Assembly (NCBI GenBank): GCA_041910335.1
Contig: JAYRRF010000010.1
Location: 1 to 57,564 of the forward strand
Source: Candidatus Moraniibacteriota bacterium
GTDB taxonomy: Bacteria > Patescibacteriota > Minisyncoccia > Moranbacterales > UBA1568
Reading direction: 5' to 3'
DNA length: 57,564 bases
A model generated the notes under the pieces. The model worked only from the letters and a program-made list of their open reading frames with translations, searched no databases and had not been told where the DNA came from. A program made the position numbers and the translations under genes. This document shows, piece by piece, positions 23,544-34,306 of this stretch (position 1 is its first letter; every line of letters starts with the position of its first letter).

Positions 23544-24266
23544 CTAGTGTGCAATCCAATCAGCGAAGCGTCTCGTCACCATTTCAAGTTCACGAAGATC
23601 GCTATCACTTAGCTTGAGCTTGAGACACGCTCCAAGCCTATTAGTAGCGAAGAGACGCATTAGCTTGATAGTGTTTTCTTGGATATAGAAACTCTCCTTG
23701 AGTTCACTGGCTTCTGCTTCGGTGATGACTCCGCCTGCCCGAGGACTAAAGAAATGCCTTTCCCCTTGCACAAGCCTCTGCCCAGAGTGGACCGAAGTCT
23801 CTGCTTCAATGTGGTAGCCAAGATGACTAAACAACTGAAAGAGAAATACTTGCGACAAAAGACGCATTCTTTCTTTTTGTCCTTCGTTAACAAGTCTTTC
23901 TCCTTCTTCAAGGTACTGCGTCATCAGGTCATAAAGCTCTTCGTCGCTCTCATCCATATCGACGAAGCGCTCGAGAATACTCATGTTTTGTGAGACCGAA
24001 AGAAGTGCTTCATAGTCACCTCTTAGAGAAGCAAACATCTCTTCCACTACAGCCGAAGTAATCTTGCCTATGCCCTTCGTCTTATTGATGATAAGCGAGA
24101 CAACAGTGAAGCTCTCCAACTGAGAAGCAAGCTTGGCTTCTGGTTTGCGGACGCCTTTAGCCATCACTCGTATCTTCCCTTGCTCACGAGTATAGAGAGT
24201 GTAGAGACGGTCTGTCTCCCCAACTTCTTTCTTGCTCAGCACAATAGCGGTATAACGATATTCCAT
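23544..24266 (-). CDS. recO: DNA repair protein RecO
   Basis: AIVLSKKEVGETDRLYTLYTREQGKIRVMAKGVRK. Confidence 0.92.
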   Translation of the reverse strand: MEYRYTAIVLSKKEVGETDRLYTLYTREQGKIRVMAKGVRKPEAKLASQLESFTVVSLIINKTKGIGKITSAVVEEMFASLRGDYEALLSVSQNMSILERFVDMDESDEELYDLMTQYLEEGERLVNEGQKERMRLLSQVFLFQLFSHLGYHIEAETSVHSGQRLVQGERHFFSPRAGGVITEAEASELKESFYIQENTIKLMRLFATNRLGACLKLKLSDSDLRELEMVTRRFADWIAH

Positions 24267-24304
24267 GTCTTAACAATGTCAAAAGTAAAATGGAAAATGT
24301 GAGA

Positions 24305-24835
24305 CTAAGCTCCCTCCAAGAAGTCGAGTATCTTTTCAACTAATGAGTCTGTTGATTCGTCTGTATCTAAAAATAGTTTGTTCCCAGGCATAACAGAGTA
24401 GTCAAAGTCCTGCTGCTGCAGTCCCCCCTCATGATATCTTTGTTCGTCATGATGACTCGCATGACGCTCTCTCGTAAGCATTCTTCTGAGACGTTCCTCT
24501 TCTGATACAGAAAGTATGACCACCCTAAGGTCTACATCATACATATCAATCCACTCTTGAAATAACTTCGGATTATCTGGATGATTAAATGGTGACTCGA
24601 GAATGATATCTACTTCGTTTTGAATATTATCTTCTGCTAAACCAACAAGCAAAGCTATACTCTTGCGACCATGTATCTTACTCTCTTCTAAAGAAGAGCC
24701 CTCATACAAATCATAGAGGCTTTCTTTGATTACATCCTTATGTAGGCACACTATATTTATTTTTTTAGCAACTGAGGTGGCCAGGGTAGTTTTCCCGGTA
24801 CCAGGCAGTCCACAAAAAATGATTACTCGACTCAT
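24305..24835 (-). CDS. P-loop kinase (AAA_33-like)
   Basis: CGLPGTGKTT Walker A and R-R lid-like segment; ATG overlaps the ileS stop as ATGA. Confidence 0.8.
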   Translation of the reverse strand: MSRVIIFCGLPGTGKTTLATSVAKKINIVCLHKDVIKESLYDLYEGSSLEESKIHGRKSIALLVGLAEDNIQNEVDIILESPFNHPDNPKLFQEWIDMYDVDLRVVILSVSEEERLRRMLTRERHASHHDEQRYHEGGLQQQDFDYSVMPGNKLFLDTDESTDSLVEKILDFLEGA

Positions 24836-27800
24836 ACTCGTTTGAGCCAAAAGGTGAATGAGATATCTTCAATATCAACTGTATTGGAGTACTCGGCACC
24901 CGTAAGCTCACCTATCTGCACTTCCGTAGCCAATACCTCTCGAGCTATCTCATCTTGATGCGCTGCAAATACATCTTCTTTACCTGAGTAACCAAGCACT
25001 ATACGATCTTCGACATTGAACCCAGCTTTCTTACGACCTTCTTGGATGGCACGAATGATTTCGCGTGCCTGACCTTCTAAGATAAGTTCTGGGGTAAGAT
25101 TGGTGTCAACGACTATGCTCTCTTTTTGGTTAGTATCTATCAATACTTCTTTCACATTTAACTCATCTCTGAGAATTGCTTCATGCTCCTCTGATAACAA
25201 GACATTGATAGTGACTTTAGCAAGAGGCTGCCTTACTTTTATTGCTCGATTATCAAGACCTTCTGTAATCAACTTTCTGAGGACTTTCATGTCTAGAATA
25301 ATTTCCTGCACAATTCTTTCTCCGCCTATTTTTCCATTAGGCCATCCTGCCAAATGCACCGACTCTTTGCCTGTAAGATTTTGGTACATTTCTTCTGCTA
25401 TGAACGGTGCAAATGGCGCCATTAATTTAGAGAGTTCAACCAAGGTAGTGTAAAGAGTTTGGTAAGCCTCTTCTTTATCACCATCATTCTCATTCTTCCA
25501 GAAACGCTTACGGCTACGACGAATATACCAATTCGAAAGGTCATCGATAAATGGTGCAAACTTCCGGGCTGCCACTGCTAAATCATAATTCTCTAGGTCT
25601 TCTGTTACTCCTTGTATCAATATTTGAAGCTCTGCGAGAATCCACTGATCAAGGATATTTTTAGGTACATGCACATGTGGTGCTGGTTGCCAATTATCTA
25701 TTGTGGCATACGTCGTAAAGAACGAGTAGGAATTCCAAAGCATACGAAAAGTATTCCTGACCATCGTCTGTAGGTCTTTCTCAGAGAAGTTGAGATTCTC
25801 CGCACTAACGACTGGCGAGGTAGTGATATACATACGAAGAGCATCCGCTCCATACGTATCGATGATCTGCATCGGATCTGGGTAGTTCTGGAGCTTTTTA
25901 CTCATTTTTTTGCCATCTTCTGCCAAGATGACCCCCGTTGCTATGGCGTTTTTGAAAACTGGCTCATCATAGAGAGCAGTACCGAGGACATGCTGATAAT
26001 AGAACCATGTTCTCGTCTGTTCTACCATCTCAGCAATGAAGTCAGCTGGGAAGCGCTCATTTGTACCCTCTCTCATATGGTGCTCGCTCGCGTATGGCAT
26101 CGAACCACTATCAAACCACGTATCAAGTACATCTGGTACTCGTTTCATCACGCTATCGCACGTACTACATGACCAAGTCAACGCATCAACTGTGTGCTTA
26201 TGAAGGTCATCTACTTGCTGTCCGCTTTTCTTCTCCAATTCTCTGACAGAACCGATTACTTCTTGATGACCATTCTGACAAACCCACAGCGGTATACAGC
26301 TCGCCCAAAACCGCTGACGACTGACTGACCAGTCACGTGCTCCCTCGAGCCACTTCCCAAACCTTCCTGCTTTCACGTGCTCCGGCGACCAATGAATTGA
26401 CTCCGCATTCTTCAAAAGCTCGGGCTTTATCTTATCTACGGCGACGAACCAGCTACTGGTTGCATAGTTGAGGAGTGGTGTATCACAGCGCCAGCAGTGT
26501 GGGTAGCTATGCTCATATTTTTCCTTACTGAATAAAAGACCCCTACTTGCCAATGCCTTGATGATTTCTACGTCGAAAGCCTGTGCATTGTCTATCGGCT
26601 TCACTTGCATACCGGCGAATTCTTTGACTTCAGCCTTGATAGTTCCATCCATCTTCACATGCTGTACCCATGGAAGGTGATGCTGTTTTCCAAGAAGCAT
26701 ATCATCTTCTCCAAAAGCCGGCGCTTCATGAGCAATACCCGTACCCATATCTGTCGTCACAAAATCCGCGTGATACACCTTCCAACCATTTTCATGATTT
26801 TCCAACTCCTTCTGATCAAAGTAATCTTTGAATGGTGGTACGTATTTTGTCCCCAGGAGTTGATCACCTGCTTGCACAAAGACCACGACATATTCACCGA
26901 GTTCCCGAGAGAGCAACTCTAATCTTTCCTTTGCTACCACGAGAAGCTCTTCTGGGAAGCGATCTGAATACACCATTGCATATCCAATCTCTTTATTCAC
27001 TGCGAGTGCGACATTTCCTGGCAGCGTCCACGGTGTGGTCGTCCAAGCCAAGAAGGATATCTTTTCTATTTGAGCAGGCATTCTTCCTTCAGAAGCAAGG
27101 TTGAAACGATTCATTTCTAAGTCCTTGTACAAGTCTTCTGCTGGTGAAGGTGTACGCCATACCAACTCAGTGTGCTGTGTTTCCTGTAAAGCTGGATCAC
27201 CAGAAACAATCTCCGTCTCAAAAACATGCAATCTCTTGAGTCGCCCCTGGTATATTCGGAAACTCTGGTAGAGTTTCTTGCCTGTTTTGACTGTCACACC
27301 GAGCTCTTCTCGGCATTCACGTACCAATGCCTCTTCAAGACTTTCTCCTTGCTCTACCCCTCCGCCGACAAAAAAATACTGTTCTTCTTCTTTTTGATAC
27401 ACAAACAGGATTTTATCCTCCTGACGAATCAGTGCGATAGCTACGTCGTCTGCTTCGGTTTGGTCCACCTCAAACTTCGCAGTGACTGCTAAATCTTTCA
27501 CGTCCTTATACCCTTCACTCACTTCTGCCTGAGCCAAAGTTGTTTCACAGCGCGGACAGATGTGCATCGTGCGATAGCTCTCATAAATGAGTCCCTTGTC
27601 CCAGAGGCTTTTCCATACCCACCAGACACTCTCCATGTACTCCTTTGACATGGTGAAATATGGATTCTCCATATCCACGAAACGTCCGAGGCGTTCTATA
27701 TACATCTTCCAATCCTCCGCATACTCAAGCACCTTACCACGACAAGCGTCATTGAACTTGTCGATACCATAAGTTTCGATATCTTTCTTGTTCTTGAAAC

Positions 27801-28098
27801 CAAGCTCTTTCTCTACAAGGTTCTCGATAGGAAGTCCGTGACAATCCCAGCCCCACTTCCGTTCGACACGAAATCCTCGCATCGTCTTATAGCGAGGTAC
27901 GATGTCCTTCACGATACTCTGTAGGAGATGCCCGTAATGAGGCAAACCAGTAGCAAAAGGCGGTCCATCATAGAAAACAAACTCTGGCCTTTCTCCCTTT
28001 GGTCCGACTGATTTTTCAAAAATATGATTCTCCTTCCAATATCGAAGCACTGCCTGCTCCATCTTCGGGAAATTCATTTGTGCGTCTACTTTTTTCAT
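24832..28098 (-). CDS. ileS: Isoleucine--tRNA ligase type 2 with inserted NUDIX domain
   Basis: GPPFATGLPHYGH, WTTTPWTLP, KMSKK; complete Nudix box at 27295-27363. Confidence 0.97.
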   Translation of the reverse strand: MKKVDAQMNFPKMEQAVLRYWKENHIFEKSVGPKGERPEFVFYDGPPFATGLPHYGHLLQSIVKDIVPRYKTMRGFRVERKWGWDCHGLPIENLVEKELGFKNKKDIETYGIDKFNDACRGKVLEYAEDWKMYIERLGRFVDMENPYFTMSKEYMESVWWVWKSLWDKGLIYESYRTMHICPRCETTLAQAEVSEGYKDVKDLAVTAKFEVDQTEADDVAIALIRQEDKILFVYQKEEEQYFFVGGGVEQGESLEEALVRECREELGVTVKTGKKLYQSFRIYQGRLKRLHVFETEIVSGDPALQETQHTELVWRTPSPAEDLYKDLEMNRFNLASEGRMPAQIEKISFLAWTTTPWTLPGNVALAVNKEIGYAMVYSDRFPEELLVVAKERLELLSRELGEYVVVFVQAGDQLLGTKYVPPFKDYFDQKELENHENGWKVYHADFVTTDMGTGIAHEAPAFGEDDMLLGKQHHLPWVQHVKMDGTIKAEVKEFAGMQVKPIDNAQAFDVEIIKALASRGLLFSKEKYEHSYPHCWRCDTPLLNYATSSWFVAVDKIKPELLKNAESIHWSPEHVKAGRFGKWLEGARDWSVSRQRFWASCIPLWVCQNGHQEVIGSVRELEKKSGQQVDDLHKHTVDALTWSCSTCDSVMKRVPDVLDTWFDSGSMPYASEHHMREGTNERFPADFIAEMVEQTRTWFYYQHVLGTALYDEPVFKNAIATGVILAEDGKKMSKKLQNYPDPMQIIDTYGADALRMYITTSPVVSAENLNFSEKDLQTMVRNTFRMLWNSYSFFTTYATIDNWQPAPHVHVPKNILDQWILAELQILIQGVTEDLENYDLAVAARKFAPFIDDLSNWYIRRSRKRFWKNENDGDKEEAYQTLYTTLVELSKLMAPFAPFIAEEMYQNLTGKESVHLAGWPNGKIGGERIVQEIILDMKVLRKLITEGLDNRAIKVRQPLAKVTINVLLSEEHEAILRDELNVKEVLIDTNQKESIVVDTNLTPELILEGQAREIIRAIQEGRKKAGFNVEDRIVLGYSGKEDVFAAHQDEIAREVLATEVQIGELTGAEYSNTVDIEDISFTFWLKRV

Positions 28099-28100
28099 AG

Positions 28101-28877
28101 TTATTCATTTGATGTATCACGTCTCTCATACTGAGCCAATGCCTCGGTCAAAGTATCATGCATTTTTCTATACTGCTCGAGTTTATCGAGGGCTCCAAAA
28201 GCTCTGAATGCGTCTACATACTCTGAAAAATCTTCAATGACTCTTTTAGCTTCCTCCACAAGACCCAGGTCATATTCTCCTTCAGGCTTCATCTTAGAGA
28301 GCAACGACTCGAATAACTCTACATCAGTGGCAAATGCATCCTTTTGTTCTGCTGATTGAAGCCCTCGATCGCTAACATTGTCAATTCTTTTATCATTCTC
28401 GAGAAGCCCCCTACTGATTCTCTCCTTAAGCACAGCTACTTTTTCAGCCTCTTCTGATATACCATAGTTTATAAAAACCTTACGAAAATCTTCAAGCTGA
28501 AGAAGGAGATTATCCAAGCTTCTATTGACTCTTTCTCGTGTTTCACCTCCAATGCTGTGAAAGATTCTCAAAAGTCTTTCTATCTTCTGTAGTTGCTCAT
28601 CATATGAGCGATACCGACTCATCGTAAAGAGAATTCGCACTATCTCATTCTTGTTTCCCTCTATCTGGCGTCGTACTACTACCCTATCCTCTCCTGCAAT
28701 TTTGGGATCATCAAGGATATCTTGAAAACTCTTATTGAGACCTTCAAATTTAGCCTTGTACTTCTCTAATGCTAAAAGGAAATCTTTTTCCTCTGCTTTC
28801 TTTTCTTTGCTCTGATCACGCTGCTGACGGGCAGCTGCCAGATCGACTATATTATTTCCTACTTGTTCTATACTCAT
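28101..28877 (-). CDS. Hypothetical charged helical/coiled-coil protein between the T-box and ileS
   Basis: 258-aa ORF starting about 10 nt after the T-box terminator and ending 2 nt before the ileS ATG. Confidence 0.75.
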   Translation of the reverse strand: MSIEQVGNNIVDLAAARQQRDQSKEKKAEEKDFLLALEKYKAKFEGLNKSFQDILDDPKIAGEDRVVVRRQIEGNKNEIVRILFTMSRYRSYDEQLQKIERLLRIFHSIGGETRERVNRSLDNLLLQLEDFRKVFINYGISEEAEKVAVLKERISRGLLENDKRIDNVSDRGLQSAEQKDAFATDVELFESLLSKMKPEGEYDLGLVEEAKRVIEDFSEYVDAFRAFGALDKLEQYRKMHDTLTEALAQYERRDTSNE

Positions 28878-28886
28878 AAACTTATA

Positions 28887-29100
28887 AAAACAAAAAATCC
28901 TTAACACGCCTGTGTTAAGGATGCTTCAACGAGTTCAGCATGGTACCACCTTACTTTATCCGCCAGCTGGCGAACCTTCATTATACGCTTTACGCTACGC
29001 TTGCGACGGGTTCTACTCTCGAATGATTTCTTCCCGTGACCTGTCTCGGCTATAGAGTGAACTATAGACGGACTCAGAGGTGATTATCTCTTCAAGGCCT
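28887..29100 (-). promoter_or_regulatory. T-box riboswitch (Ile specifier AUC), terminator type
   Basis: Stem I with GAAGAGA/GCCGAGA motifs, specifier GAA-ATC-A at 29025-29027, GAGAGTAGAACCCGT, stem III TCGCCAGCTGGCGGA, antiterminator AAGG-TGGTACC-ATGCT...AGCAT-CCTT, terminator ATCCTTAACAC-AGGC-GTGTTAAGGAT plus U-tract. Confidence 0.93.
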
Positions 29101-29110
29101 TTGTAGCTCC

Positions 29111-29139
29111 ATACTAGCAAGACTTTCCCTACAAATCAA
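29111..29139 (-). promoter_or_regulatory. Putative sigma70 promoter of the T-box leader
   Basis: TTGATT-N17-TAGTAT with extended TGn. Confidence 0.7.
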
Positions 29140-29830
29140 CCTCGAGAATCATCGGGAGATGATCTGATGATTCATCGTCTTCTGGCACCACAAAACTCTT
29201 CACTTTGATATCAGGTGAAACAAAAACAAAATCAGCCCAGAGTTGCTTAGGAAGATCGGGCCACATATCCCAAGAAATCTGATTCCGTGTCGTCTTAATG
29301 TCAAAATCTCTAATCAAGTTTCTATACCCCGCCTCCTCAAACATTCGCACACTCTCAGTATCCAAGAGAAGATTGAAGTCGCCCCCAACTATATGAGGCT
29401 TCTTTTTGTCTTTCAAAAACTCGAGCAACAGCCGTGATTGTTTCAGGCGCACCTCTGTATCTACCTTAGTACCAGGTTGCCACTGTCCGTGAAAATTAAT
29501 TACGGAAAGCTTTTTATCTCCATCTCCTATTTCACTATATAACCCCACTCCGCAACCTTCTTCGTGAACCAAGAGTGCTTGTGATTGAGTCTCAATGAGA
29601 TTCTTTTGTATATAGGTATTATTGGTATAGTTATCTCTTTCCTGTCGAAAACCTCTTGTGGTAACACTTCTCAAAGTAAAATTCTCCAGGTGAGTCTCTG
29701 CTAAAGCAACAAACTTCTCTTCTGCTTCTTGAAAACAAAAGATATCAGCATCTTCTCGGTGCTTAAGAAGAAAGCGTGCTAAATTCTCACTCATGGTAGC
29801 ATCCCAACAATTCAGAAAAACAATCTTCAT
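29129..29830 (-). CDS. Endonuclease/exonuclease/phosphatase (EEP) family protein
   Basis: FCFQE, INFHG, GGDFN, ADFVF, SDHLP. Confidence 0.9.
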   Translation of the reverse strand: MKIVFLNCWDATMSENLARFLLKHREDADIFCFQEAEEKFVALAETHLENFTLRSVTTRGFRQERDNYTNNTYIQKNLIETQSQALLVHEEGCGVGLYSEIGDGDKKLSVINFHGQWQPGTKVDTEVRLKQSRLLLEFLKDKKKPHIVGGDFNLLLDTESVRMFEEAGYRNLIRDFDIKTTRNQISWDMWPDLPKQLWADFVFVSPDIKVKSFVVPEDDESSDHLPMILEVDL

Positions 29831-29831
29831 A

Positions 29832-30410
29832 CTAGACCCCTTCCCATTCCAACTTCGTAACTGAGCCAGTCGCAGGTGACCATCCAATAGCGCTGTCATA
29901 CACACTCTCGCCCAGTATTCTTCCGTGGATTTGTTCCAACGTATCAGCGTGTGACACTAAGACCACCTTTTGTCCCGGAAGTTCTCGAGCGATATCCTGG
30001 AGGATACTCTCCACTCGATCTCGCATCCCGAGCGTACTCTCTACTCCATCGGCGCCATCTGTCTCTATTCTCTCTTCTGGTTTGGTATACCTTTGAAAGA
30101 ACTCTCGAGAAGGCCGAGCATTATAGATACCGAAGTCAGTCTCTCGCAAGCGCACATCCTGAAAGACAGGTACCCCCGTAGCCTCACTAATGAGCATAGC
30201 TGTCTCCACGGTTCTTGTGAGTGGTGAAGCGATAATGACAGTGACAGCCTCTTTGCTCAGTTGCTCTCCAGCTGCCTTGGCTTGCTCTACCCCCTTCGTC
30301 GTCAGATGTCTCACGGTACTGCCTGGTATTTCTGGATATGAACTCAATAAAGAAAGAGTGTTAGACTCTGACTGACCATGGCGTACAAGGTAGAGAGTGA
30401 TGTTCGGCAT
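29832..30410 (-). CDS. Histidine phosphatase family protein
   Basis: LVRHGQS, SPLTRT, LRETDFG, VSH. Confidence 0.92.
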   Translation of the reverse strand: MPNITLYLVRHGQSESNTLSLLSSYPEIPGSTVRHLTTKGVEQAKAAGEQLSKEAVTVIIASPLTRTVETAMLISEATGVPVFQDVRLRETDFGIYNARPSREFFQRYTKPEERIETDGADGVESTLGMRDRVESILQDIARELPGQKVVLVSHADTLEQIHGRILGESVYDSAIGWSPATGSVTKLEWEGV

Positions 30411-30635: not shown

Positions 30636-32231
30636 TCACATTTTCTCTGGAGCGCTGACCCCGATCAGTCTGAGCGTCTCACCAAGTACTATCTTAGTAG
30701 CCGCTACCAAAGCGAGACGTGCCTCGGAAAGCTCTTTAGCGTTTCCATCTATCACCTGGCAAGCTCCGTAGTATGAGTGAAATTTATCAGCCAAGCGAAT
30801 AGCTAACTGTGGGAGGCGGTGTGGTGCAGACTCCGTAGCAGCCAACTCAATGACGTCCTGAAACGTGAGCATCTCTCGAATGAGAGAACGTTCTTTTTCG
30901 TGAGTGAGGAGAGTGAGGTCAGCAGCTTGATAGTCGTAGCCTTCATTCTTGGCCTTCTCAAGAATACTCGCCATACGAGCGTGCGCATACTGAACATAGT
31001 AGACCGGATTTTTCTGCGAACGTTCCTCAGCCAAGCCAAGGTCGAAAGTCATATGCGTATCTGGTGAATACTGAAGAAAGAAGAATCGTGTCACATCATG
31101 CCCTACTCGCTCGATAAGCTCATCGATAGTGACGACATTCCCAGCGCGCTTACTCATTCGCACTTCTTCACCATCTTTCATCAGTTTCACGAGTTGCATC
31201 AAAAGAAAAGTCGCGCTCTTGCTCTCATCCCCAGTCAACGCCTTAAGTACCACATTGAAACGATTTACGTATCCATGATGATCTGCTCCCCAAATCTCAA
31301 TGATACTATCATAGCCTCGCTCTAACTTCGAAAGGATATAGCCGCATTCAGAGGCAAAGTAGGTCTTATTACCATCACTTTTGATGAGCACTCGATCTTT
31401 GTCATCACCAAGATCTGTTGTCTTCAACCAAAGAGCTCCTCCGTCTTCGTACACCCGCCCCTGCTCTCGAAGTTTTTCGATTGCTCGATCTACTACTCCT
31501 GACTCAACCAGTGCTCGTTCCGAAGTCCAGACATCGAATCGTATCTGCATCCCACTCTCGATAGTGGGCTTGAGATAATCACTTACAATAAGTGCTGCTG
31601 CTTCTTTTCCTACTTCCCAAGCGTCATCGGAAATATCTCCCATCTTGGTACGCAGCTCCTCGATGTATTCTCCGCCATAGACTGCCTCTGAGTCACCAAT
31701 AACACTGTGACCCAACTTCGTCACCTGCTCACCAGCGTCATTGATATAGTATTCGTTGGTTACCTCAAAGCCACACTTGCGAAGAAGTCGTGAAAGCGAG
31801 TCCCCATAAAATCCTCCGCGGCCATTACCAAGATGGAGTGGGCCCGTTGGGTTTGCAGAGATAAATTCGATATTCATCTTAGTTCCCTGTCCGATATGAG
31901 AAGAGCCAAAGGATTCTCTGTCTTTTAATACTTTCTCCACTACAGTCGAAAAATCAATCTCTTTAAGATAAAAGTTGAGATGCCCTGGTCCAGCCACTTC
32001 TACCCGAGCAAAATCATCAGTTAATTTTTGAGCGATACTACTTGCTACCTCTCTTGGGTTTGTTTCTATTTCTCTTCTGATAACAAGAGCTATATTAGAA
32101 GTATATTCCCCAAACTGCTCATCTTTCGGTGTCTCTACTGTAATCTCCGGCAAGATAAAAGCAGGCAAAGTACCTGCCTGCTGAAGACTTTCGAGCACAT
32201 CTTTTATTTTTATGGCAATACCTTGTTTCAT
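30636..32231 (-). CDS. argS: Arginine--tRNA ligase
   Basis: EFISANPTGPLHLGNGRG, GADHHGY, MSKRAG, YVQYAHAR. Confidence 0.97.
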   Translation of the reverse strand: MKQGIAIKIKDVLESLQQAGTLPAFILPEITVETPKDEQFGEYTSNIALVIRREIETNPREVASSIAQKLTDDFARVEVAGPGHLNFYLKEIDFSTVVEKVLKDRESFGSSHIGQGTKMNIEFISANPTGPLHLGNGRGGFYGDSLSRLLRKCGFEVTNEYYINDAGEQVTKLGHSVIGDSEAVYGGEYIEELRTKMGDISDDAWEVGKEAAALIVSDYLKPTIESGMQIRFDVWTSERALVESGVVDRAIEKLREQGRVYEDGGALWLKTTDLGDDKDRVLIKSDGNKTYFASECGYILSKLERGYDSIIEIWGADHHGYVNRFNVVLKALTGDESKSATFLLMQLVKLMKDGEEVRMSKRAGNVVTIDELIERVGHDVTRFFFLQYSPDTHMTFDLGLAEERSQKNPVYYVQYAHARMASILEKAKNEGYDYQAADLTLLTHEKERSLIREMLTFQDVIELAATESAPHRLPQLAIRLADKFHSYYGACQVIDGNAKELSEARLALVAATKIVLGETLRLIGVSAPEKM

Positions 32232-33894: not shown

Positions 33895-34294
33895 GGGGTT
33901 GTTTAGACTCGACAGCGTGTACTTTCAAAATAGGCAAGCCGACCTTGAGGATATGGTCGTAAATCTCGTCCTCATGATGATAATTGCAAACCTCATCTCA
34001 AAGACAAAGAGCGCATTTGCTAACGCATTTGCTCCCTCTTATGCTCTTGCTCTTGCTTAATTAAAGCAAAGCCATCAGCTTACTGACTCTCGATAAGGAC
34101 AGCTGGTGTCATAATCATCGAGACGACTCGTTGCTTTCACTTTTTTTACAACATCAGTCGTATTGCAAAAGAAAGAACCATTAAGAAGTTTTGTTTCTTT
34201 TTTCATTCTTGGTGGTCACTCCAAAAGAGACTACGCTTGTAGAATATTTTGAAAAAACATGATCTGGACATGGGTGCAATTCCCATCAACTCCA
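33895..34294 (+). ncRNA. ssrA: tmRNA (one-piece)
   Basis: 5' GGGGTTG pairs with 3' CAACTCC-A with G3:U70; GACTCGAC motif; T-arm ATGGG-TGCAATT-CCCAT; tag ORF 33986-34060 ANLISKTKSAFANAFAPSYALALA; adjacent to smpB. Confidence 0.95.
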
Positions 34295-34306
34295 CATTTA
34301 ACAACA

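Follow-up and report, generated by a model that had tools for sequence, protein, structure and literature searches.

The closest described counterparts of the element reported here are the T-box leaders of actinobacterial ileS genes, with examples in Mycobacterium tuberculosis, M. smegmatis, and Nocardia farcinica (Sherwood 2015, as far as it is related in PMC7583486; structures 6UFG and 6UFM). In such leaders Stem I is short and the specifier is located in its apical loop, an arrangement known only from translational ileS T-boxes of actinobacteria (PMC7583486). For transcriptional T-boxes, rapid capture of the tRNA generally depends on the platform of a long Stem I (PMC7583486), truncated Stem I forms are placed in the translational class by TBDB (PMC7778990), and a further study likewise ties truncated Stem I to translational T-boxes (PMC11297988). 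The DNA analyzed here is a 57,564-nucleotide (nt) stretch of a Candidatus Moraniibacteriota bacterium (assembly GCA_041910335.1, contig JAYRRF010000010.1, positions 1 to 57,564), referred to as the window. On its minus strand, a T-box leader with an ultrashort Stem I and a terminator-type 3' end is followed by a gene for a 258-amino-acid (aa) protein without a family match (gene X), by the isoleucyl-tRNA synthetase (IleRS) gene ileS, and by a P-loop kinase gene. This minimal T-box probably drives X, ileS, and the kinase gene by tRNA-Ile-dependent antitermination, with X as a clade-specific passenger and not a core partner of IleRS.

The leader and the actinobacterial ileS T-boxes have in common the target gene, an AUC specifier followed by a purine in the apical loop, the K-turn, the lack of an elbow-binding platform, the S-turn in Stem II, the Stem IIA/B pseudoknot, Stem III, and the UGGN bulge. 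The leader differs in having a GC-containing hairpin and a U-tract as a terminator, where the actinobacterial leaders have a Shine-Dalgarno sequestrator, and also in its Patescibacteria-type host, a hairpin added after Stem I and ahead of Stem II, and a gene inserted between the switch and ileS. The Shine-Dalgarno sequestration of the actinobacterial class II was not found, as there is no ribosome-binding site at working distance in the helix. In the canonical transcriptional T-boxes of Firmicutes (RF00230; Bacillus subtilis tyrS, glyQS, and ileS), as in this leader, terminator and antiterminator compete, the bulge is the 7-nt UGGNACC, a Stem III is present, and the specifier matches the regulated synthetase. 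Unlike them, the leader has a Stem I of 29 nt and lacks the platform, formed by a distal AG bulge and a distal loop, on which the tRNA elbow docks in canonical class I; its Rfam score is 38 bits, where the gathering score is 93.

Stem I has 3 bp at its base (GGC/GUC), then a K-turn made up of the bulge CUU and tandem GA/GA, a 4-bp helix (AGAG/CUCU), and the apical loop AUAAUCAC, which holds the specifier AUC (29084-29082) and then the purine A29081. Coordinates of all the features are collected in Table 1. Across relatives the stem covaries (AGAG/CUCU, GGAG/CUCU, GGGG/CCCC, and GGUGG/CCACC), and AUC with a following purine was present in the equivalent apical or side loop of 17/17 ileS leaders examined. 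A second AUC at 29027-29025, in Stem II, was considered as the specifier and rejected: relatives have AGC, ACC, or CCC in its place, and it is not conserved in L001, L003, or L008 (related loci are designated by L numbers). In two leaders (L021:4800-4900 and L023:4790-4900), Stem I carries an added distal helix and the AUC is in a side loop, an intermediate type of Stem I; ultrashort and intermediate forms thus coexist in this group.

In Stem II, the purine strings of the S-turn (GAAGAAA and AGUAGAA) are conserved and all eight pairs (8/8) covary, as do those of Stem IIA. The latter is formed by CGC/GCG, and its loop GCGU pairs with GCGU at 28988-28985 (IIB), for which the partners covary by eye only (GCUU/AAGC, GCGY/GCGU, and GGC/GCC). 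The Stem III hairpin is formed from a different sequence in L005 and L007. The antiterminator comprises helix A1 (UAAGG/CCUUA), the 7-nt bulge UGGUACC (28948-28942), and helix A2 (AUGC/GCAU); GGUGGUACC is invariant in 17/17 leaders, and 4/4 pairs of A2 covary. The discriminator base of bacterial tRNA-Ile is A73. The UGGU of the bulge would pair with the 3' ACCA of the tRNA. The terminator is a hairpin of 11 bp that folds at -14.5 kcal/mol (z -5.1). Positions 28922-28916 belong both to it and to the antiterminator, its 5' arm overlapping the 3' strands of A1 and A2, and the two structures are mutually exclusive. The additional hairpin that follows Stem I is shared by the window with L001, L008, and L019, and the leaders of Moraniibacteriota and of L015 have one of another form; it is missing in L003, L004, L005, L007, and L009, and its loop sequence is not conserved.

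When the window was searched against Rfam at gathering thresholds, only a tmRNA was reported and the T-box was missed. A search with the T-box model, as proposed in an earlier note that had been made on this DNA from the sequence alone, did detect the leader: RF00230 matches 28914-29104(-) at 38.2 bits, though under the gathering score of 93, with an E-value of 6.9e-7 in a 701-nt search and 5.7e-5 in a search of the whole window with all families. The alignment spans Stem IIA, Stem III, and the antiterminator, with no match in Stem I and Stem II. Leaders of relatives score 27-49 bits with the same model. A separate covariance model (R1) was built from the leaders of five relatives, excluding the window, with a hand-set structure. 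R1 finds 28887-29106(-) at 137.8 bits (E 1e-30) with no other match in the 57.5-kb window, and it also detects leaders outside its seed (L001, L008, L011, L012, L015, L019, L021, and L023). The absence of a T-box, as would follow from the default Rfam search, was ruled out by the E-value search and R1. In the R1-based alignment, standard pairs occupy 97.4% of the pair cells, a fraction inflated by the fitting of the alignment to R1, and both sides change in 17/27 pairs; as a control, partners slid by 1-3 columns pair in 29-49%.

Upstream of the leader, a putative sigma-70-type promoter was read from the sequence, with a -35 element TTGATT (29139-29134), a 17-nt spacer, an extended -10 TG (29119-29118), and a -10 element TAGTAT (29116-29111). 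It scores under the 9/12 cut-off of the consensus scan, and a TTGCTA[AG]NAT motif at this position is kept in L001, L003, L008, and L019. Downstream, the stop codon of X is separated from the ATG of ileS by 2 nt (TAACTATG), and the ATG of the kinase gene overlaps the TGA of ileS (GTATGAGT); together, the 2-nt gap and the ATGA overlap suggest that X, ileS, and the kinase gene are translationally coupled. The consensus scan returned a single strong terminator on the minus strand, the leader hairpin at 28922-28897. Within the operon, the terminator-like sites were all weak, and promoter-like sites were as frequent as expected by chance (12 found, 12.1 expected). As the scan found no terminator-like site 3' of the kinase gene, transcripts may continue into recO. 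A promoter-like TTGACA-16-TATCGT (24282-24255) overlaps the start of recO, and the interval between the kinase gene and recO (24255-24310) contains no terminator. One tRNA-Ile-responsive transcript carrying X, the NUDIX-bearing IleRS, and the kinase would fit all the computed data.

Several readings of the earlier note were borne out by these results: a putative promoter ahead of the leader, the UGGUACC bulge, a terminator competing with the antiterminator, the 2 nt between X and ileS, the ATGA overlap of ileS and the kinase gene, and the lack of an internal terminator, apart from the weak sites on the minus strand. Its proposal of a transcript shared by X, IleRS-NUDIX, and the kinase is consistent with the short gaps between X and ileS, with the lack of a conserved internal promoter, and with the retention of AUC in 17/17 leaders. 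Two readings stood in part. An AUC specifier exists, but the conserved one is in Stem I, not the copy in Stem II. The leader had been called a complete transcriptional T-box, and the specifier, bulge, antiterminator, and terminator are indeed all present, but the leader is of the minimal type, its Stem I being ultrashort, and is not canonical.

The proposed mode of control is as follows. Transcription from the putative promoter would produce a leader RNA acting as an isoleucine-specific minimal T-box. The AUC in the apical loop of the 29-nt Stem I, which has a K-turn and no elbow-docking platform, would read tRNA-Ile, and this reading would be supported by the S-turn in Stem II together with the IIA/B pseudoknot, as in actinobacterial ileS T-boxes. 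If the bound tRNA is uncharged, its free 3' end would pair with the UGGU of the bulge, and the antiterminator would be stabilized. A charged tRNA would be unable to pair with the bulge, the 11-bp terminator with its U-tract would form, and transcription would stop before X. Read-through would give one mRNA with X, ileS, the kinase gene, and possibly recO, and isoleucine starvation would be expected to induce all of them. The RNA architecture with its covariation, the conserved order of the genes, and purifying selection on X are observed; binding of the tRNA, control of transcription rather than translation, co-transcription of the genes, and any function of X are inferred.

The protein encoded by X is acidic (pI 5.1) and all-helical, with an N-domain at approximately residues 30-160 and a C-domain at approximately 180-256. 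Its N-terminal motif (N-I/V-I/V-D-L-x-x-A-R) is conserved, and as N-[IV]-[IV]-[DP]-[LFI]-x-x-A-[RH] it survives in versions with only the N- or the C-domain. An exhaustive HMMER search of 1.84 billion representatives found nine relatives, of which a word-index search finds two, with amino-acid identities of 31-55% across the family. No Pfam, NCBIfam, or PADLOC match was obtained for X, the Pfam searches being negative for all nine members, and PHROGs gave one marginal match (E 0.0013). A sequence-profile search of the PDB returned designed repeat proteins and noise only. AlphaFold2, run on the nine-sequence alignment, produced an all-helical model of two domains with a predicted local distance difference test (pLDDT) score of 79. 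When the model was compared with the PDB and BFVD using Foldseek, the best E-value was 0.18 and template modelling (TM) scores were at most 0.26, with nothing below E 0.1. The proportion of nonsynonymous differences (pN 0.27-0.35) was well below that of synonymous ones (pS 0.74-0.87, saturated), which, with the 31-55% identity across relatives, shows that X is real, coding, and constrained. X evolves much faster than its neighbor: between L005 and L007, X is 42% identical and IleRS 85%. It is thus a real, fast-evolving orphan, a presumably non-enzymatic helical protein under purifying selection.

The forms of X vary among the relatives. The gene product has 244 aa in L001 and 257 aa in L003, and it is partial in L002. 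In L005, L006, and L007 it is reduced to an N-domain of 169 aa, in L008 to an N-domain of 163 aa, and in L019 to 102 aa with only the N-terminal motif and the C-domain. L004 has a 204-aa open reading frame (ORF) followed by a 162-aa N-domain ORF, so that X is split there and its order swapped; the C-terminus of the 204-aa product matches the C-domain of X (hhalign probability 66%, E 5.8e-5). Further loci came from an IleRS genome scan (ten loci, mostly of Moraniibacteriota in the Parcubacteria group) and from a search with the NUDIX region, which found six more NUDIX-bearing IleRS, with five loci fetched for four of them. In these loci, the slot between the T-box and ileS is filled differently. 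L012, L013, L014, and L016 have a gene for a four-helix bundle of the 23S_rRNA_IVP family (PF05635), L011 has a different ORF of 139-160 aa, and L009 has a 134-aa ORF and a 581-aa ORF with DUF4347. The slot is empty in L015, L021, and L023, as well as in L020, where the T-box is also absent. In L020 (4740-5001), a NUDIX-bearing IleRS gene starts 33 nt after a split His_Phos_1 gene, and there is no T-box, passenger, or kinase gene.

Like the PF05635 proteins, which are associated with 23S rRNA intervening sequences, X is a small helical protein encoded between the terminator of an ileS T-box and ileS. It is unlike them in having two helical domains and an N-terminal motif of its own, and in lacking detectable homology: hhalign gave a probability of 0.4% for X against the L014 protein, and none of the nine X members matched PF05635 in Pfam. 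The comparison of X with the 581-aa protein of L009 using hhalign was also negative.

IleRS was identified by TIGR00392 (879.8 bits, cut-off 621.4), by the motifs HYGH, KMSKK, WTTTPWTLPGN (editing), and GTGIAHEAP in the translation, and by the Pfam domains tRNA-synt_1, Anticodon_1, and a C-terminal DUF5915. A NUDIX domain is inserted in the CP1 editing domain just before WTTTPWTLPGN (PF00293, E 9.8e-14, 51.9 bits, cut-off 21.1). Its Nudix box, GGVEQGESLEEALVRECREELGV at residues 244-266, is intact and agrees with GX5EX7REUXEEXGU, and among NCBIfam families the domain comes nearest to MutT and pyrimidine (d)NTP diphosphatase. The insert is missing from the IleRS of L001, L003, L007, and L009; in L019, L020, L021, and L023 it occupies exactly the same site, and the flanks are shared as well. 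In the IleRS tree, the NUDIX-bearing enzymes (window, L019, L020, L021, and L023) are split between two separate parts, which suggests that the NUDIX/CP1 module has been repeatedly lost or moved by recombination. Approximately 80 residues of CP1 after the insert are also common to the NUDIX-bearing IleRS of the two clades. Capture of the insert from the free NUDIX genes nearby was considered and found no support, as only the Nudix box, or 29% identity over 79 aa, aligns. The complete accessory enzyme domain within the synthetase resembles the arrangement in NF040702 (ileS_w_GNAT), from which it differs in that the embedded domain is a MutT-like NUDIX in CP1 before WTTTPW; the IleRS of the window scores 322.9 bits with that family against a cut-off of 1999. 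PADLOC returned the candidate defence family PDC-S07 for the insert (E 9.2e-19) and, as a weak match, VakA for the kinase (E 9.6e-7); both matches probably reflect generic domain similarity.

The kinase belongs to AAA_33 (4.8e-16, 59.8 bits) and has a zeta-toxin-like fold. The Walker A motif GLPGTGKT, HKD34 with the Asp that follows strand 2, and the Arg-rich lid RLRRMLTRERH are invariant across six orthologues, and the protein is 50% identical to the orthologues of Moraniibacteriota. Its AlphaFold2 model (pLDDT 88.6) is most similar in the PDB to the putative kinase 2rhm (TM 0.73-0.76), and the fold matches that follow are small-molecule kinases and PSTK, which do not discriminate between substrates. 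Orthologues lie directly 3' of ileS in L011, L013, L016, L019, L024, and L026. Homologues also occur away from ileS, after ftsW in L027 and in a cluster of Inositol_P, NUDIX, and Nuc_deoxyrib_tr genes in L028. L014 (9313-9876) and L016 (9156-9665) are near-identical in the T-box, the IVP gene, and IleRS, and the gene after ileS encodes a NudE-like NUDIX protein in the former and the P-loop kinase in the latter. In L011, kinase, NUDIX, and kinase genes are arranged in tandem. Kinase and NUDIX functions recur near ileS in the Parcubacteria clade, but they are interchangeable and not strictly linked to ileS. The identifications offered in the earlier note for the three products (a helical protein of no known family, an IleRS with a NUDIX domain, and a P-loop kinase) agree with these results, and the structure search that it had suggested for X, run against the PDB and BFVD, gave no significant match.

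The role of X can be read in more than one way. A dedicated partnership with IleRS, in which X would act as, for example, a scaffold, chaperone, or regulator, be kept at a fixed ratio by translational coupling, and possibly dock by its N-terminal motif, is unlikely, although several observations point that way. In all eight X-bearing loci for which the surrounding DNA was fetched, X is directly upstream of ileS, or adjoining it in L004, with gaps of 1-12 nt, and in every case where the sequence extends far enough upstream, a T-box lies ahead of it. The gene is under purifying selection, its N-terminal motif survives in N-only and C-only versions, and it has been retained across a clade in which IleRS has diverged to 60-78% identity. 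The linkage, the motif, and the retention weigh against X being a mere passenger. On the other side, X is missing from sister lineages with the same T-box and IleRS type (L009, L015, L021, and L023), of which L009 forms one fully supported clade with all the X-bearing loci in the IleRS tree. Unrelated genes replace it in other lineages, whole domains of it are dispensable, and it has evolved far faster than the synthetase. In addition, the 1-kb metagenome contig L002 (1-1015), compared with 27700-28760 of the window, is 93% identical in DNA through X and approximately 80 nt into ileS, and its X is 92% identical in amino acids. Past that point, L002 encodes another type of IleRS (GPPTANGKPGLHH), with 75-79% identity to the enzymes of Moraniibacteriota and 60% to that of the window; the pattern resembles the replacement of an allele, with the breakpoint shortly after the start of ileS. 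The persistence of X beside a replaced synthetase is evidence against a fitted interface between X and IleRS. Because the slot is variable or empty in relatives, the domains of X have been lost, split, or swapped, and a 92% identical X adjoins a swapped IleRS, the passenger reading is favored, and the tiny size of the family, with nine relatives, was counted in the same direction. The likeliest role of X is that of an accessory or passenger gene, specific to its lineage, that occupies a permissive slot and was brought under tRNA-Ile-responsive control; it is most likely neither a component of the T-box mechanism nor a partner fitted to one particular IleRS. The earlier note had left the first gene as either part of a synthetase-associated module or a captured passenger, and the comparative data favor the latter. 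The same note would have given up its reading if the two accessory genes were absent from the ileS loci of all relatives; both recur beside ileS, X in all eight relatives with fetched surroundings, where synteny had been proposed as a check. Also improbable is a wider version of the partnership, a single system for quality control or repair centred on IleRS and made up of X, the NUDIX insert, the kinase, and, from upstream, the histidine phosphatase and the EEP protein. It would act on the 3' end of tRNA-Ile, diadenosine tetraphosphate (Ap4A), or aminoacyl-adenylate mimics when tRNA-Ile is uncharged. NUDIX, P-loop kinase, and His_Phos_1 genes do recur before, after, or inside ileS in the clade, and the kinase resembles polynucleotide kinase (PHROGs, E 5.5e-9) and, in fold, PSTK. 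Against this, the kinase and NUDIX genes are exchanged between near-identical loci (L014 and L016), kinase homologues are also found in a nucleotide-salvage-like context (L028) or after ftsW (L027), the histidine phosphatase and EEP genes are upstream of the T-box promoter, the fold matches of the kinase are generic small-molecule kinases, and in compact genomes conserved gene order alone is weak evidence. A shared IleRS-centred function is a lead of low probability. Slimmer still are the chances of a more elaborate picture in which Patescibacteria have their own minimal T-box lineage, terminating without contact to the tRNA elbow, and the operon is an inducible IleRS workbench, with X as a modular helical adaptor whose N-terminal peptide docks on the synthetase. 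X would gather the embedded NUDIX, the kinase, and the neighboring phosphatases so that, upon failure of tRNA-Ile charging, blocked ends of tRNA-Ile, Ap4A, or inhibitors mimicking adenylates are removed.

The mode and the target of control were weighed in the same way. The leader might act on translation, with the 3' hairpin sequestering a ribosome-binding site instead of terminating; ultrashort and intermediate forms of Stem I have to date been linked with T-boxes of the translational kind (PMC7583486, PMC7778990, and PMC11297988), and AAGGA is present in the 3' arm of the hairpin, with AAGGA or GAGGA in most relatives. We consider this unlikely, since the AAGG is dictated by pairing with the CCUU of helix A1, and the start codon is too distant for AAGGA to be used as a ribosome-binding site. 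The start codon of X is 20 nt past the hairpin, and the distance is 15-26 nt in most relatives; the sequence in between is AU-rich and unpaired, and 5-11 U follow the hairpin directly in nearly all relatives, which is the signature of an intrinsic terminator. It is very unlikely that the T-box governs X alone and that ileS is mostly transcribed from a promoter inside X, an outcome that the earlier note had set against its own reading. The sole promoter-like site within X, TTTACG-18-TATGAT (28628-28599), is shared with L001 and L002, but it is one of the chance-level matches, falls in codons of the conserved LFTM...SYD motif, and is missing from 6/9 X homologues (L003, L004, L005, L007, L008, and L019). 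The isoleucine specifier, moreover, is kept in 17/17 leaders whatever fills the slot, a passenger or nothing, a pattern understandable only with ileS as the regulated gene, and one that points to it as the selected target. Some points weigh against tRNA-dependent antitermination as the mode of control. A terminator-type switch with an ultrashort Stem I would contradict the current rule, and the AAGGA in the terminator arm may leave room for some translational effect. The covariation values carry the inflation described above, no tRNA gene, including tRNA-Ile, was found in the window or the fetched loci, and the sequencing runs that contain the stretch are of DNA from activated sludge and wastewater, with no RNA-seq run found among them. 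Antitermination by uncharged tRNA-Ile nevertheless remains the probable mode of control.

Ultrashort or intermediate Stem I in combination with a terminator was found here and in 16 related ileS loci. If the switch works as read, the platform is dispensable for fast co-transcriptional tRNA capture. In the literature library searched, a full-text search for T-boxes together with Patescibacteria or the candidate phyla radiation found no paper. Annotation at the Rfam threshold overlooks a whole set of T-boxes in ultra-small bacteria. The locus shows that unrelated small genes can land in the gap separating the terminator of a riboswitch from an essential gene, where they would gain starvation-responsive expression. 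The IleRS of this group is itself a mosaic, with a variably present NUDIX insert and with the whole enzyme type swapped between near-identical genomes.

Table 1. Features of the T-box operon and its surroundings in the window, and slot genes of the 23S_rRNA_IVP family in related loci
Feature	Position	Strand	Basis or remark
Putative sigma-70-type promoter	29111-29139	minus	Read from sequence; overlaps EEP stop codon
Ile T-box leader, minimal type, whole element	28886-29104	minus	Rfam and own covariance model
Stem I, ultrashort, 29 nt	29071-29099	minus	Sequence
Extra hairpin after Stem I, core CUAUAG-UUCACU-CUAUAG	29041-29070	minus	Lineage-specific
Stem II and Stem IIA/B pseudoknot	28985-29037	minus	Covariation; IIB by eye
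Stem III, UUCGCC-AGCU-GGCGGA	28959-28974	minus	Aligned to Rfam Stem III
Antiterminator, UAAGG-UGGUACC-AUGC...GCAU-CCUUA	28916-28953	minus	RF00230 alignment, sequence
Intrinsic terminator, 11-bp hairpin and U5GU5 tract	28922-28897 (hairpin), 28896-28886 (tract)	minus	Terminator scan, folding
Gene X, 258 aa	28877 (ATG)-28101	minus	ORF list, sequence
ileS, 1088-aa isoleucyl-tRNA synthetase	28098-24832	minus	TIGR00392, Pfam
NUDIX insert, approximately residues 212-342 of IleRS	27073-27465	minus	PF00293 at residues 219-320
P-loop kinase, 176 aa	24835-24305	minus	Pfam AAA_33
recO	24266-23544	minus	ORF list, sequence
Exo_endo_phos (EEP) protein	29129-29905	minus	Pfam; outside T-box unit, upstream
Histidine phosphatase (His_Phos_1)	29832-30410	minus	Pfam; outside T-box unit, upstream
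argS	30636-32231	minus	ORF list, sequence
23S_rRNA_IVP gene, L012	5423-5902		PF05635
23S_rRNA_IVP gene, L013	5230-5907		PF05635
23S_rRNA_IVP gene, L014	5529-5906		PF05635
23S_rRNA_IVP gene, L016	5535-5912		PF05635

A non-coding stretch of 250 nt separates the EEP gene from X. The upstream order argS, His_Phos_1, an EEP or MutT-like NUDIX gene, and the T-box recurs in L001, L003, L019, L021, and L011-L016. The tmRNA of the window, at 33895-34297, was found by Rfam at 114.8 bits, whereas ARAGORN reports none in the window; ARAGORN does detect the tmRNAs of L011-L014 and L016.

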